Assembly: GCA_965116025.1 (NCBI GenBank)
Contig: OZ220480.1
Location: forward strand, 1,088,001 to 1,152,000
Direction of reading: 5' to 3'
Length of the DNA stretch: 64,000 nucleotides
Origin: an uncultured candidatus Porisulfidus sp.
GTDB lineage: Bacteria > Pseudomonadota > Gammaproteobacteria > Poriferisulfidales > Poriferisulfidaceae
A program made the translations under genes and the position numbers. A model generated the notes under the pieces. The model ran no database searches. It was not told the DNA's origin and saw nothing but the letters and a program-made list of their open reading frames with translations. Positions 15,651 through 20,738 of this stretch are shown here, one piece after another. The number at the start of each line of letters is the position of its first letter. Positions within the stretch are counted from its first letter, which is position 1.

Positions 15651-16724
15651 TCAGAAGCGAATGTGCGCCGAGGCGTTGAGGCTGGATCGGGAGCCGCGCC
15701 AGTTGTTGATGTGGAACTTGGTGAACGGCAGTCCGGCCCGCTCGAAGAACTGAGGCCATCCAATTCGCTCGATCCAGTCGTTGATCCGCTCCCAGTCCCG
15801 AGCGTCGTCGCGGTAGGCGCGCAGGATGCGCTTGACCACGGCGGTGGCTTCCGGCCATCGCGGCGGATTGTTCGGTATGCCAGCCGCTACCAGCTTCTGG
15901 AACGTCGGCTTTCCACGGGCGTTGGAGTGGTTGCCGCCGACCCAGATCGCGAGCTTGGTGTGCTCCGGGTCGTTGATCTGCATGGGCGGGCAGGGCGGGT
16001 AGCAGGCCCCGCAGCAGATGCACTTCTTCTCGTCGACCTCGAGCGAGGGCTTGTTGTTCACCAAGGCCGGGCGGATCGCGGCGACCGGGCAACGGGCCAC
16101 CACCGAGGGCCGCTCGCAGACGTTGGAGACCAGGTCGTGGTTGATCTTGGGAGGTTTGGTGTGCTGGACGTTGATCGCGATATCGCCTTGGCCGCCGCAG
16201 TTGATCTGGCAACAGGACGTGGTGATGTGCACCCGGTTGGGCATGTTCCAGCCGCGGAACTCGTCGATCAGCTCGTCCATCATCGCCTTGACCACGCCGG
16301 AGGCGTCGGTGCCGGGGATGTCGCAGTGCAACCAGCCTTGCGTGTGCGAGATCATCGCCACCGAGTTCTTGGTTCCGCCGACCACGAAGCCGGAGTCTTC
16401 CAACGCCTCGATAAGCGGCTCGACCTTGCTTCCGTCGTCCACCATGTATTCGATGTTGCTGCGGATGGTGAAGCGGACGTAGCCGTCGCCGAACTGATCC
16501 CCGATGTCGCACAGCTTGCGCAGGGTGAACACGTCCAGGATGCGCTGGGTGCCCGCGCGCACGGTCCATATGGATTCCCCGTTGCGCGCGACATGGCGCA
16601 ACACGCCAGGGCGGGGATCCTCGTGGTAGGCCCAGTTCCCGTAATGCTTGCGCATCAGCGGGTGCAGGTACTGGAAGCCGTCCGGGCAACCGGATTCGAC
16701 GGGAGAGCGGTGTTCCGTAGCCAT
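15651..16724 (-). CDS. dsrB: Reverse dissimilatory sulfite reductase beta subunit
   Basis: HTQGWLHCDIP, SCCQINCGG and CICCGACYPPC motifs. Confidence 0.97.
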   Translation of the reverse strand: MATEHRSPVESGCPDGFQYLHPLMRKHYGNWAYHEDPRPGVLRHVARNGESIWTVRAGTQRILDVFTLRKLCDIGDQFGDGYVRFTIRSNIEYMVDDGSKVEPLIEALEDSGFVVGGTKNSVAMISHTQGWLHCDIPGTDASGVVKAMMDELIDEFRGWNMPNRVHITTSCCQINCGGQGDIAINVQHTKPPKINHDLVSNVCERPSVVARCPVAAIRPALVNNKPSLEVDEKKCICCGACYPPCPPMQINDPEHTKLAIWVGGNHSNARGKPTFQKLVAAGIPNNPPRWPEATAVVKRILRAYRDDARDWERINDWIERIGWPQFFERAGLPFTKFHINNWRGSRSSLNASAHIRF

Positions 16725-16744
16725 AAGTCAACGCCTCCGCGATC

Positions 16745-18010
16745 TCAGGCCGCCGCCTGGGCGGGTCGCTCGGATTTGCGCCGAAACCACTTCTCGGCCT
16801 CCTCCTCCCAGTCGTCCATGCGGACGTAGGAGCTGGTGCGCGGCTCGTTGATCATGTTGGGATCCACCTCCACGCCGATGCCTTCCAGAAAGTTGACCAG
16901 GCCGATGCGCTCGATCATCTCGCCACAACGCTCGTGCTCCAAGCCGTTCTCGGCCCAGAAGTCGATGGTCTCCTCGGCGAGCTCGATCAGCCGCTCGTAG
17001 TCCTCCTCGGTCTCGAGCTTCATGAACGGCACGATCATGGTGCCCATCAGGTCGCCGATCTTCAACGTGCGCTTGCCGCCGATCAGGATCGAGACGCCCT
17101 TGTCGTCTCCTGGAGACAGGGCCTTGGGCAGCACGTTCAGGCAATGCATGCAGCGCACGCAGTTTCGGTTGTCGACTTGAAGCTGGTCGTCGTCCGACAG
17201 GGACAGGGCGTTCGTCGGGCAACGCGTGATCACGTTGTCGATCAGGTACTGGCGGCCCTTGGTCTCGAGGTAGCCGGCGATGGCGTCTTGGTCCACCTTC
17301 ATGTCGTCCCGCCACGTGCCGATGATGGAGAAGTCGGAGCGCTCGATCGAGTTCATGCAGTCGTTGCCGCACCCGGACACCTTGAACTTGAACTTGTAGG
17401 GCAGGGCCGGGCGATGCACGTCGTCGGTGAAGTTGTTGAGCAACGCCCGATGGATGCGCATCTCGTCGGCGTTCGATTGCTCGCAACGGGCCGCGCCGAC
17501 GCAGGACATGCCGGTGCGGACGCAGGGGCCGGCGCCGCCGAGGTCGAAGCCGTAGTCGTTGATCTCGTCGAAGAAGTGCTGGGTGTTCTCCGTGCTGGCG
17601 CCGATGAACATGATGTTCCCGGTTTGGCCGTGGAAGGTCACGAGCCCCGAGCCCCAGCGCTCCCAGCTGTCGCCAAGCTGACGCAGAACGTCCGTGGTGT
17701 AGTAGTTGCCCGCGGGCGGTTGCACGCGCAGGGTGTGGAATTCCTTGGAGGCGGGGAAGGACGCGCCGACTTCCGAGAACCGGGGGATGATGCCGCTGCC
17801 GTATCCGTAGACGCTTACCGTCCCTCCTTTCCAGTAGCCCTTGCGGGTTTCGTAAGAGTGCTCGAGCTGTCCGAGCAGGTCGTTCGCGACGCCGTTGACC
17901 CGTTGGTCAGGGTGCTGGTCGCGGAGCCGCTTGATGCCGGAAATGAAGCTCGGCCAAGGGCCTTGCTCCAGCTCGTCCAGCATCGGCGTTTTGTGCTGTT
18001 CGTCGGTCAT
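16745..18010 (-). CDS. dsrA: Reverse dissimilatory sulfite reductase alpha subunit
   Basis: TPMLDELEQGPWPSF, GYWKGG, CVGAARCE and YKFKFKVSGCGNDC motifs. Presence of dsrEFH and dsrL indicates the oxidative type. Confidence 0.97.
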   Translation of the reverse strand: MTDEQHKTPMLDELEQGPWPSFISGIKRLRDQHPDQRVNGVANDLLGQLEHSYETRKGYWKGGTVSVYGYGSGIIPRFSEVGASFPASKEFHTLRVQPPAGNYYTTDVLRQLGDSWERWGSGLVTFHGQTGNIMFIGASTENTQHFFDEINDYGFDLGGAGPCVRTGMSCVGAARCEQSNADEMRIHRALLNNFTDDVHRPALPYKFKFKVSGCGNDCMNSIERSDFSIIGTWRDDMKVDQDAIAGYLETKGRQYLIDNVITRCPTNALSLSDDDQLQVDNRNCVRCMHCLNVLPKALSPGDDKGVSILIGGKRTLKIGDLMGTMIVPFMKLETEEDYERLIELAEETIDFWAENGLEHERCGEMIERIGLVNFLEGIGVEVDPNMINEPRTSSYVRMDDWEEEAEKWFRRKSERPAQAAA

Positions 18011-18715
18011 GGTTCACGTCCTCCTGTCGACACGCTTGCCAGCGCGTAGGATAAATGATTTCGGGGCAGATATGAATTTCACTAAGGGGTGAGCCTGTGA
18101 TCGCCCCATTATATTCCTTAATGAGTAGGCTCCGGCTTTCGCCCCGAACCCCGCCCGCTCGCGACCTCCTCCATGCAATTCCCCAAGCCTGCCGATTCGT
18201 CCGCGAGAGCCGGCCATCTCATGGCGCGGCGCGGCGATGTCCCGGCGGGGATTCTACAGGAGCCGATAATCAAGGGTGGCCGATCTGGCTGGAAGAACTT
18301 CTCGCGATTCGAGCGCCGCGCTTGGCGCTCGGATCCGTATTCGCGGCGCGACTCCAGATTCCTGGGCGGGGAGCGACGGGAGGGTGGCGTCTTGGATTCT
18401 GGCGCGAACCCCCGGCCCAGTGCCGCGCGCAAGTCTATGATTTCACAGACGATCATTCGTCCTATAACAGGCGGGGCGGAAAGTCAAGCGAAAACGGTCA
18501 CGAGAAAGTGACCATTTACGCTTGCGTTTTCCCGCGCTTTGGGGCATGGTCGGAGGCTCGCCGGATGGAGGCCGAGACCCGCGCGCTCCGTCCTCGCCCT
18601 TTGACCTGGATCAGGAGATCTCTCATGGAACATCATCAGCAACGAATTCCCGCCGAATCGGCTTCCGAGCGTCCGGCCCCACGGCCGCCAGCGTTTGATA
18701 TATATGGTTCGCCCC

Positions 18716-18964
18716 CTCCCTGCAAGTCGGAAGCTGAAGCGACGGTCGATCGGCTGCGCACATATATCCGGCCTCTTGATGGGAGGACGTCGCCTCCCGG
18801 GCCCCGATGGGTTTCGCACGCTCCGTCCTTATCACGATAACGGCCTCGAAGGCCTGTATCAAATCCAGGGTCTCGGAGCGTCGGTCCGACCTGTTCCGCC
18901 ATCTTTTCGCTTCTTCCCCGCAACCGATCGGCGGGCAGAGCCCGCCGGGATACGGAGGGAAGCC
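18716..18964 (-). ncRNA. Putative bridge/seek RNA in the long non-coding end; exact RNA ends unknown
   Basis: Contains TTTGATACA and TTATCGT matching the target, CCCATCA and ATATATG matching the donor circle junction, and several hairpins. Confidence 0.75.
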
Positions 18965-20011
18965 TCATGTCATGCGGGCTTCCTCCCGATAGGTTCCGCC
19001 GCGCCGGAGCAGCGCCCAGGCGACGCGGACGTTCTTGTTCGCCAACGCGACCGCCGCCACGTTGTCGTGGTGGCGCTCCCGCAGGCCGCGAAGCCAAGCG
19101 CCGAGCGCGTCCTCGCGCTGGTCCGAGACGCGCAATACCGCTTTCGCGCCCAAGATCAGCAGGCCGCGCAAGGCGCGGTCCCCCCGCTTGCTGATCCCTC
19201 CGAGCTTCGGCTTTCCGCCGGTGGAGTATTGCCGCGGCACCAGGCCGAGGTAGGCGGCCGCCTCCCGCCCATTGCGGAACTCGCCGCCGTCGCCCAGCTT
19301 CGCGACCAGGGCGCTGGCCGTCAGCGCGCCTATGCCCGGGATCGTCATCAGCCGCCGGCAGCCCGGATCGGCCTCGGCATGCGCCTGGATCCGCGCCCGG
19401 CAATCCCCCTCCCGCCGATCCAGCGCCCGCACCTCCTCGTAGCCTTCCGCCAGCGCCTCGCGGACTTCCGGAAGCAGGCCGTTCTCGCCGTCCTCCAGGA
19501 TCTCCGGCAGCCGCGCGCGAAAGACCCCGATCCCTTTCGGCATGACGATCCCGTACTCCTGCAGGAACGCGCGCGACTGGTTGACCAGCCGGGTGCGGCT
19601 CCGCACCAGCCGCTCCCGCGTCCGATGGCATTGCTGGATCGCTTGCTCGGCCTCCGACCGTGCCGGCGCGAAGCGCATGCTCGGACGGCTCCGCGCTTCG
19701 CAAATCGCCTCCGCGTCGCGCGCGTCGTTCTTGTTCGACTTCACGAACGGCTTCACGAAGGACGGCGCCATCAGCCGCGCGTCGTGCCCATGACGACGGA
19801 ACAGCCGCGCCCAATGGTGCGCGCCGCCGCAGGCCTCCAGCCCGACCCGGCATGGCGGCAGCTCCTCCGCGAAGCGTTCCAGCTGAGCCCGCGTGAAGCG
19901 CCTCTCCAGCGCGATCTTGCCGGCGCGCGTCATGCCGCAGGCGTGAAACGCCTGCTTGCCCAGGTCCACGCCCAGATGGGCGATGGCGAGTTGATGTAGA
20001 GTCTGCTTCAT
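18965..20011 (-). CDS. IS110 family recombinase/transposase
   Basis: GVDLGK, GLEACG and KNDARDA (DEDD RuvC) motifs; IPGIG and YLGLVPRQYSTGG (catalytic Ser). Confidence 0.96.
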   Translation of the reverse strand: MKQTLHQLAIAHLGVDLGKQAFHACGMTRAGKIALERRFTRAQLERFAEELPPCRVGLEACGGAHHWARLFRRHGHDARLMAPSFVKPFVKSNKNDARDAEAICEARSRPSMRFAPARSEAEQAIQQCHRTRERLVRSRTRLVNQSRAFLQEYGIVMPKGIGVFRARLPEILEDGENGLLPEVREALAEGYEEVRALDRREGDCRARIQAHAEADPGCRRLMTIPGIGALTASALVAKLGDGGEFRNGREAAAYLGLVPRQYSTGGKPKLGGISKRGDRALRGLLILGAKAVLRVSDQREDALGAWLRGLRERHHDNVAAVALANKNVRVAWALLRRGGTYREEARMT

Positions 20012-20738
20012 AAGGGTCGTCCTGCTTTCGCTATGGGTTGTGATACTCTAATTGTGCCCGCTCAAGGCCAAGCAGGGAAGCGGGGCGAACCATCCCATCA
20101 CAATAAAATCGCAGAAGAAACTGACGAACGGAGGCTTCCAGGAGCGACAAGCCATGGCTATCGTCGAGACCATTCGAGACTCCCAGGCGGAACTCGCCAC
20201 GAGAGAGGACTTGCTCGCGACGCGGAGAGAGCTGAAGGCCGAGATCGTGAAGCAGGGGCTTGAGCTTCGCAACGAGTTCCACACCGCGATCAGCGCTTTG
20301 CGCGACGAGTTCCGAGGCGAGCTGCATAGCGAGATTGGTGGTCTGCGCAAGGAAATGCAGGAGCAACTCTCCACTTTGCTCTGGCGCATCCTGCTTGGCG
20401 TTGGGGTGATCGTCAGCGTTGTCGGAGGCATTGTCGGAATCGTCTTTACGCTAGTTGGCGGAAAGTAGATTCTGGAGCCCGTGGTTCTCATCCGGCTTTA
20501 CCGTCGTTGATGATGGACCCCGAATGAGGTCAGGCGCGGAGATCCTCCAGACGGCTCGTCCGGCTCCAGATGGGCGCGCGGGTCCGTTTGGGCTCGTGTC
20601 GAACATTCAGCTGTAGCGCGCGTCCTGTTCGATCAGGAAGCTGTCGCCGATGTCTCGATACGTGAACATGGGTCAGGGAAGGCCTTTGACTCGCGTCGTC
20701 GCCCGCGAAACCTTGGGTCGTTCATTCAGGCGCGCGAG

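Follow-up and report, generated by a model that had tools for sequence, protein, structure and literature searches.

RNA-guided recombinases of the IS110 and IS1111 type are under development as genome-insertion tools and, to our knowledge, nearly all mechanistic work on them has been done with IS621 and ISCro4, both of the IS110 group. In the passages of Siddiquee et al. 2024 drawn on here (PMC11187229), IS1111 elements were described as having subterminal repeats of 7–17 bp, a longer downstream non-coding region and a transposase of 330–350 aa with the motif GL-P----S(t)G. Their seekRNAs were reported there to match the top strand 5′ of the bottom-strand match, with the two matches overlapping in the target, and for ISEc11 an 82-nt RNA with target matches alone sufficed for transposition from a donor that had to be target-flanked. 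According to the parts of Durrant et al. 2024 used here (PMC11208160), the donor-binding nucleotides of IS1111-group RNAs often lie in a multi-loop. PMC13626964 names IS1111 only among its references. The present analysis concerned an insertion sequence at 18701–20100 (minus strand) of a 64,000-nt stretch of an uncultured candidatus Porisulfidus sp. (GCA_965116025.1, contig OZ220480.1, positions 1,088,001–1,152,000; the window). The 264-nt end of this element 3′ of the transposase gene very probably encodes a two-loop bridge RNA (seekRNA), the element itself being a complete one of the IS1111 type. Coordinates without prefix are those of the window, C1 coordinates those of the element's own genome, and L numbers denote collected loci of relatives.

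The element and its candidate guide RNA

The limits of the element (1400 nt, with the shared T at 20100 assigned to the left end and the T at 18700 to the target) were set by alignment of the seven full-length copies present, together with fragments, in the 2.02-Mb, one-contig genome. These copies are 90–100% identical, and in all of them the similarity stops at the same two positions. The uninterrupted paralogous site C1:1697474 matches both flanks, which meet there at one shared base, in agreement with the empty site proposed in an earlier note on this DNA. In transposase sense the element begins with TGATGGG and ends with CCATATA. The left end (20072–20100, minus strand) consists of TGATGGGAT (20092–20100) followed by the subterminal inverted repeat GGTTCGCCCC-GC-TTCCCTGC, and the right end (18701–18726, minus strand) of CTTGCAG, with TTGCAG at 18720–18725, the subterminal repeat GGGAGGGGGCGAACC and ATATA. 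The subterminal repeats, GGTTCGCCCC at 9 nt from the left end and GGGGCGAACC at 5 nt from the right end, correspond without mismatch over 10 nt, and by eye the pairing runs on imperfectly to about 18 bp. The low-coordinate flank is GCGTTTGATA (18691–18700, plus strand; in element sense the right flank, T-ATCAAACGC) and the high-coordinate flank is CAATAAAA (20101–20108, plus strand; in element sense the left flank, TTTTATTG), and the insertion site in transposase sense reads TTTTATTG-T-ATCAAACGC. Flanks and ends share this single T only, with no multi-base target duplication and no terminal inverted repeats, the repeats being subterminal. An identical empty site was not found in the element's own genome, where the closest unoccupied paralogue is C1:254713 (TTATCG-T-ATCAAACGC in the same sense).

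The transposase gene (18965–20011, minus strand, 348 aa) leaves 264 nt of non-coding sequence downstream (18701–18964) and 89 nt upstream (20012–20100). Its product has a DEDD/RuvC-like N-terminal domain (PF01548, DEDD_Tnp_IS110, 1.2e-19) and a Transposase_20 C-terminal domain (PF02371, 9.1e-25), and residues 13–338 matched the NCBIfam equivalog NF033542, 'IS110 family RNA-guided transposase', with 342.7 bits against a cut-off of 140. With GLVPRQYSTG, the protein carries the TG form of the motif GL-P----SG. Among solved structures, those of IS621 (8wt6) and ISCro4 (9t56) are nearest, with sequence similarity in the C-terminal domain only (E 1.2e-7), where ...YSTG... aligns with ...LTPRRYESG... 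of IS621 and T replaces the Ser of ...YESG.... By these features, which correspond to the layout given for the IS1111 group in both PMC11187229 and PMC11208160, the element at 18701–20100 is a complete IS1111-type member of the IS110 family. The earlier note had called it an IS110/IS1111 recombinase with a guide RNA of target and donor loops, and the NF033542 match, the covarying fold and the tracking of DNA partners by the guides described below support this at the level of sequence. That it is intact and programmable, as also stated there, is suggested by its sequence and by published relatives.

For the fold, the best 80 of 518 relatives from a protein scan of a genome collection were kept, and from these and the own copies 79 segments (65 distinct) were cut and aligned with MAFFT (alignment A1). 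RNAalifold on A1 proposed 16 pairs, and compensatory changes were seen in 12 of these. Manual addition of the outer stem that closes the first loop gave 25 pairs in five helices. Over the 65 distinct sequences, 88.9% of the cells of these 25 consensus pairs were paired, versus 28–37% with slid partners; two-sided changes were seen in 21 of the 25 pairs, and the observed value was reached by none of 500 shuffles. A covariation analysis with homologous ends had been proposed in the earlier note as a check, and five covarying helices among 65 distinct relatives were its outcome. An additional 3-bp CCU/AGG helix is almost invariant across the family and, for that reason, weakly supported.

The consensus consists of two internal loops in series, each with an outer stem and an inner stem-loop, all on the minus strand. 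The target loop (18827–18869) is closed by an outer stem in which the 5′ arm ACGCUCCG (18874–18881) pairs with the 3′ arm CGGAGCGU (18818–18825); this helix 1 showed two-sided changes in 9/9 pairs, with 83.3% of cells paired. Its inner hairpin, GGCC-UUCGA-GGCC (GGCCTTCGAGGCC in the window, 18842–18854; helix 2), showed two-sided changes in 4/4 pairs, with 90.4% of cells paired. The donor loop (18756–18817) has an inner stem inside which an extension hairpin sits, GGGAGG/CCUCCC (18781–18786 with 18793–18798), whose covarying stem is helix 5.

A covariance model, R1, was built on A1, with the window copy as one of the 65 training rows, and matched the structured core of the guide RNA at 18744–18887 (minus strand) with 115.7 bits (E 5.9e-30). 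R1 gave 92 matches in the collected loci and 10 in the element's own genome, where the seven full copies are joined by one partial copy in tandem and by two degenerate solo copies. A match of 53.2 bits (L093:2026-2175) was obtained on pKHM-1, a conjugative, clinical-type IncC plasmid of Citrobacter freundii, where R1 aligned with the 3′ end of a gene annotated as an IS110-family transposase; transposase relatives at <60% identity occur on thousands of enterobacterial plasmids. A permissive Rfam search of 18400–20400 returned seven weak matches, all far below the gathering score and none over the guide RNA core, and R1 thus provides a covariance model for a family without an Rfam entry.

Target and donor guides

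All five strings singled out in the earlier note were recovered on the minus strand (TTTGATACA at 18855–18863, GGCCTTCGAGGCC at 18842–18854, TTATCGT at 18834–18840, CCCATCA at 18777–18783 and ATATATG at 18761–18767). Target guide 1, the GGAUUUGAUACA region (18855–18865, minus strand), corresponds in reverse complement to TG-T-ATCAAA (the last two left-flank bases, the crossover T and the right flank) and would pair with the top strand. The match is contiguous over 9/9 positions across the junction, as the note had claimed, and the 9-mer TTTGATACA occurs once in the window, inside the non-coding end, against 0.07 occurrences expected from shuffles. Target guide 2, UUAUCGU (18834–18840, minus strand), has the sense of the left flank TTATTG plus the crossover T and would pair with the bottom strand. 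It matches its own site at 6/7 positions, again as claimed, and the unoccupied paralogue C1:254713 at 7/7, where guide 1 matches at 8/9. In the target the two guides overlap by TGT, and the top-strand match lies 5′ of the bottom-strand match. By themselves the 7-mers are unconvincing, and the weight is carried by guide tests across the family.

For these tests the ends of the relatives were placed by homology to conserved end blocks, blind to the guides. The first set comprised 89 elements in 41 guide clusters with 81 distinct guide–site pairs, the duplicate locus L008 having been removed. The held-out set comprised 80 metagenome loci fetched after the hypothesis had been formed, of which R1 matched 76 and 67 had enough downstream sequence; in L141, L110 and L101 no end block was found, and these three were excluded. 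An exact match of at least 6 nt was scored in cognate and non-cognate pairs, with 2000 permutations. The reverse complement of the target-loop 5′ strand matched the crossover base plus right flank in 44/81 cognate pairs and in 1.8% of non-cognate pairs, and the 3′ strand matched the left flank plus crossover base in 47/73 cognate pairs and in 3.7% of non-cognate pairs. In the held-out set the values were 37/61 and 2.9% for the right side and 33/54 and 2.5% for the left side. Each of the four cognate counts was reached by 0/2000 permutations. Wrong-strand and wrong-side controls gave 3/81, 0/73, 0/73 and 0/81 in the first set and 1/61 and 2/54 in the held-out set. The only match of a promoter scan, TTGATA-17-TATCGT (18834–18862, minus strand), was rejected because it is made of the two AT-rich target guides, which vary among relatives; this sigma-70-like match is probably a by-product of the target sequence.

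The donor guides were compared in the same two sets. The right-end donor guide GGAUAUAUGU (18760–18769, minus strand) is the 3′ strand of the donor loop, and its AUAUA-U is identical to the five terminal bases of the right end followed by the crossover base. Such identity between donor 3′ strand and right end plus crossover base was found in 80/89 elements of the first set, in six classes (ATATAT, ATATAA, ATACAT, ATACAC, ATGTAC and ATAGAT), and in 63/64 held-out elements, which added ATGTAT and ATATAC; this supports the proposal that ATATATG matches a predicted circle junction. A regular-expression search for a hexamer common to the non-coding end and the right end (75/87) was retained as a lead only, because the search itself required the match, and was replaced by this alignment-defined comparison.

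The left-end donor guide AACCCAU (18807–18813, minus strand) is the 5′ strand of the donor loop and the reverse complement, at 6/7 positions, of left-end positions 3–9 (ATGGGAT). Across the family this strand carries an invariant CAU, and the two bases 5′ of it covary with left-end positions 6–7. Among 82 elements of the first set and 57 held-out elements, respectively, the left-end and RNA bases were AG/CU in 42 and 22, GG/CC in 13 and 3, GA/UC in 12 and 15, GG/UC (with a G-U pair) in 13 and 12, GG/CU (with a G-U pair) in 1 and 3, AA/UU in 0 and 2, and AG/AU (one mismatch) in 1 and 0. The first set contained 18 distinct types, and its observed value was reached by 0/5000 permutations. An initial tally, in which the wrong CAT had been taken in CTCATCAT, was discarded and replaced by the one given here.

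The crossover base is T in most elements and A or C in some clades (L022, L024–L026, L033, L117; L037, L052–L055, L143, L165), and it varies in step at four places (left end, right junction, target guide 2 and donor 3′ strand), which suggests that the crossover position is itself programmable in the family. In nine elements (seven of the first set and two held-out), all with the guide GCTCACGCT, the fixed guide-2 index reads C versus T, probably through a register shift. Target and donor share only this one base.

The earlier note had assigned the left-end guide to a different segment, CCCAUCA (18777–18783, minus strand), which lies between the extension hairpin and the inner stem and is complementary to left-end positions 1–7. 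Within the clade of the element this segment could work as the left-end guide, replacing or joining AACCCAU; we regard this as unlikely, although it is the alternative with most in its favour. Its complementarity covers seven left-end bases including the crossover T, or eight with the preceding U, versus 6/7 for AACCCAU, and it has counterparts in the three closest relatives, a related UCCCAUCC in both L013 and L014 and the same CAUCAAGA in L094. However, its CCC is the end of the covarying hairpin arm (helix 5), and copies D, F and G read CCCACCG with an unchanged left end, i.e. the change is uncompensated in three copies. The segment is moreover specific to the clade (the own copies, L013, L014 and L094 only); in the other clades, among them L035 with the same left end, the corresponding stretch (CACCAAAA, CACACACA, CUACACGA and others) lacks complementarity to the left end. 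A metagenome scan for close relatives bearing on the segment yielded one (L094, 67%) with both partners unchanged, and no sequence varying in both CCCAUCA and the left end was present among the collected relatives. Of the two donor guides proposed in the note, ATATATG is thus supported, whereas CCCATCA is probably the one mis-assigned segment among the four guides, the left end being tracked across the family by AACCCAT (18807–18813).

An alternative reading of the donor loop as a whole is that only the target loop works as a guide, as in the short ISEc11 seekRNA, and that the donor-like segments are conserved for another reason; the transposase might, for example, recognize one DNA motif both at the right end and in the non-coding end, or the segments might be part of a precursor RNA only. 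The sufficiency of the 82-nt ISEc11 RNA, given a donor with target flanks (PMC11187229, in the passages cited above), speaks for this, and the donor 3′ strand has the same sequence in the same sense as the right end, which could also result from a repeat at the DNA level. The donor 5′ strand, in contrast, is the reverse complement of the left end and no repeat of it. Its mismatches are nearly all G-U (13/82 and 15/57), a pattern consistent with RNA pairing rather than with a repeated protein site, and which argues that the segment is read as RNA. Both donor strands, furthermore, lie in one internal loop with covarying closing helices, the mirror image of the target loop, and donor-binding nucleotides were predicted in IS1111 bridge RNAs by Durrant et al. 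(in the parts of PMC11208160 used). Guidance by the target loop alone is therefore judged improbable, more so than a role for CCCAUCA, and a donor loop that pairs with both ends is preferred. Chance resemblance between a GC-rich non-coding end and short AT-rich flanks, to which the shortness of the 6–7-mers and a non-significant single-sequence fold might point, was ruled out to a near certainty by the first-set and held-out guide tests, given a 9-mer unique in 64 kb against 0.07 expected, matches at the same positions in most of 81 + 61 independent, different sites, and null permutation and strand controls.

Copies, guide variants and interrupted genes

The differences between the seven aligned full copies (A–G) at the 3′ end are concentrated in two segments that flank the conserved GGCC-TTCGA-GGCC hairpin, and the stems around the guides and both element ends are unchanged. 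Copies A, B, C and E have ATTTGATACA as guide 1, copy D has ATGTTGATCTA, and copies F and G have GTGTTGACATA. At guide 2, A and B read TTATCGT, C reads TTCTAGT, E reads TTATTGT, D reads TACGAAT, and F and G read TACAAAT. The transposase frame is open in five of the seven copies and broken in D and F, and these two also match their own sites poorly.

The site of the window copy is fitted best by the guides of copy E (7 and 7, against 7 and 4 for its own guides), and the left flank of copy D fits the copy E guide and not D's own. Such mismatches between guide and site are compatible with drift that followed insertion and also with RNAs that act in trans, and the two fits to copy E are hints of the latter. 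The genome contains at least six target-loop versions, three of them in copies with an open transposase frame and the others in two broken-frame copies, one tandem partial copy and one degenerate solo RNA gene. It could represent a small library of bridge-RNA 'alleles', with a common donor loop, identical ends and varied target loops, whose RNAs possibly act in trans; this is a tentative idea to which we attach a low probability. If the RNAs did act in trans, any active transposase could direct any copy to any encoded site, and orphan RNA genes would constitute a heritable repertoire of target specificities.

Two R1 matches are solo, without a transposase gene (C1:429136-429274 and C1:1475586-1475718, 48.1 and 27.5 bits), and the first of these has yet another pair of target-loop sequences. 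Copy G (C1:1413615-1415668, loci L005 and L008) is directly adjoined by a second 3′ part of the element, which starts inside the transposase gene and has its own guide RNA. This tandem would fit an insertion of copy into copy, followed by deletion between the repeated 5′ parts.

The insertion site is coding sequence, and in the uninterrupted paralogues C1:595864 and C1:254713 an open frame crosses it. TTT GAT ACA encodes the FDT that opens the CCDC90-like domain (formerly DUF1640; PF07798, 45.3 bits against a cut-off of 33.5, from profile position 1). The family was assigned from an uninterrupted paralogue; the open reading frame truncated by the insertion stayed below the Pfam threshold. Around the window copy this concerns 18626–18700 and 20101–20468 (plus strand). 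Copies A and B, whose bodies are identical, interrupt two CCDC90-like paralogues, three further paralogues are uninterrupted (C1:1697474, C1:595864 and C1:254713), and copy C sits, by eye, in a more distant one. The identical bodies of A and B and the five open frames point to recent activity, and the element is a recent and probably active mutagen of the CCDC90-like/DUF1640 gene family.

Two further features were noted in the non-coding end. A hairpin, GGCGGGC-UCU-GCCCGCC (18930–18946, minus strand), lies directly 3′ of the stop codon, and by eye its stem is preserved in L013 by a two-sided change and in L014 by a G-U pair. Immediately 5′ of the first stem, within 18889–18964 (minus strand), is a motif conserved family-wide, GATGGC-N-AGGU. 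Both might be parts of a longer precursor RNA. Beside the element are two adjacent NIR_SIR-domain genes (15651–18010, minus strand; 357 and 421 aa; PF01077 and PF03460), which presumably resemble the two subunits of a dissimilatory-type sulfite reductase.

Proposed cycle and comparison with known systems

This analysis established the anatomy of the element and its conserved fold, and showed that three guide strands, as well as the crossover base, covary with their partners in the DNA; production of the RNA, protein binding, directed recombination, a circle and a junction promoter are predicted by analogy with ISEc11, ISPa11, ISKpn4 and IS621. Briefly, the element would excise as a circle, in which the abutted ends would form a promoter, TTGCAG-17-TATGAT, from which the transposase and the RNA downstream of it would be expressed. 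Between TTGCAG and the terminus of the right end lie 19 nt, and joining of the ends would give TA + TGAT = TATGAT after a 17-nt spacer; by eye, relatives with the left end TAATGG would yield TATAAT at the junction. In the target loop, the 5′ strand would pair with the top strand (right target half, crossover T and two left-half bases) and the 3′ strand with the bottom strand (left target half and crossover T). In the donor loop, the 5′ strand AACCCAU would pair with the left end (top strand) and the 3′ strand AUAUAU with the right end and crossover base (bottom strand), which together correspond to the junction of the excised circle. The complex of transposase and RNA would synapse this circle junction with TTATTG-T-ATCAAA, with strand exchange at the single shared T.

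Several observations weigh against the element being an RNA-guided recombinase with two guide loops. Folded alone, the window copy gave a z of −1.40, with 17/200 shuffles folding equally well. In this single-sequence fold the two target guides form a helix together; over the relatives 30.2% of its cells are paired versus 29.8% in shuffles, and the fold was dropped for the consensus since the helix is at chance level. The target guides are therefore taken to be loop strands, and the possibility raised in the earlier note that the matching segments fold into stems does not hold for them. Guide 2 of the window copy matches its own site at only 6/7 positions, and copies C, D, F and G fit their flanks poorly. 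The end positions of the relatives rest on end-block homology and not on empty sites. The shared crossover is one base, versus the dinucleotide of IS621. The case is built on DNA sequence, from which RNA, circle and transposition are inferred. The sufficiency of the short ISEc11 RNA implies that the donor loop may be dispensable in IS1111-type elements; by analogy, it may matter in only part of the cycle. Finally, no circle junction and no excision were found in the contigs of four sequencing runs, which break at the element ends. Contig joints that skip the element were rejected as evidence of excision because they carry other letters, GTTTCGAT, corresponding to a paralogous empty site, and contig differences at 18835–18864 reproduce the guide variants of other copies.

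With about 150 collected relatives, the element forms a clean, alignable IS1111-type RNA family, with members from Gammaproteobacteria, from Acidobacteriota and from an IncC plasmid, whose sequences allow the four guide strands, as well as the crossover base, to be read directly. This gives computational support for recognition of both donor and target by IS1111-type RNAs, a point that the ISEc11 experiments left open, and leaves the known principle of RNA-guided recombination unchanged. ISPpu9 was considered as a close analogue and rejected, being an IS110-group element whose Ssr9 RNA, in the part of its description available here, is not a bridge RNA. The element's family or its targets might already be listed in the supplementary material to PMC11208160 and PMC11187229.

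Compared with IS621 and ISCro4 as described in the parts of PMC11208160 used and in structures 8wt6 and 9t56, the element would likewise have one RNA with a target-binding and a donor-binding internal loop, one strand of each loop for each DNA half on opposite DNA strands, and a crossover base read in both loops. It differs in that the RNA is encoded 3′ of the gene, at the right end, and not 5′ of it, in the reversed order of the strand matches, in its long subterminal repeats, and in sharing one crossover base and not a CT dinucleotide. The predicted IS1111-group bridge RNAs of ISCARN28, ISAzs32 and ISPa11 (same parts of PMC11208160) resemble it in lying at the right end and in having loops complementary to target and donor; compared with the multi-loop described there, the covarying donor strands of the present family lie in a plain internal loop, with an additional hairpin in the inner stem.

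The closest likeness in published descriptions, as far as the passages used extend, is to ISEc11, ISPa11, ISKpn4 and ISPst6, which share a DEDD transposase of 330–350 aa with GL-P----S/TG, subterminal repeats and a long downstream non-coding region. As in ISEc11-type seekRNAs (PMC11187229, passages as above), two short, overlapping target segments match opposite strands in the same order, and relatives are naturally retargeted by changes in the loop only. In contrast to these, the target consists of the FDT codons of CCDC90-like genes, and the donor loop covaries with both ends, a property not described in those passages of PMC11187229, in an element known from its sequence alone. The transposase is only about 45–50% identical to the plasmid-borne relatives found. 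Taken together, these comparisons indicate that the element is a well-preserved further member of the IS1111 seekRNA/bridge RNA class first described in 2024.

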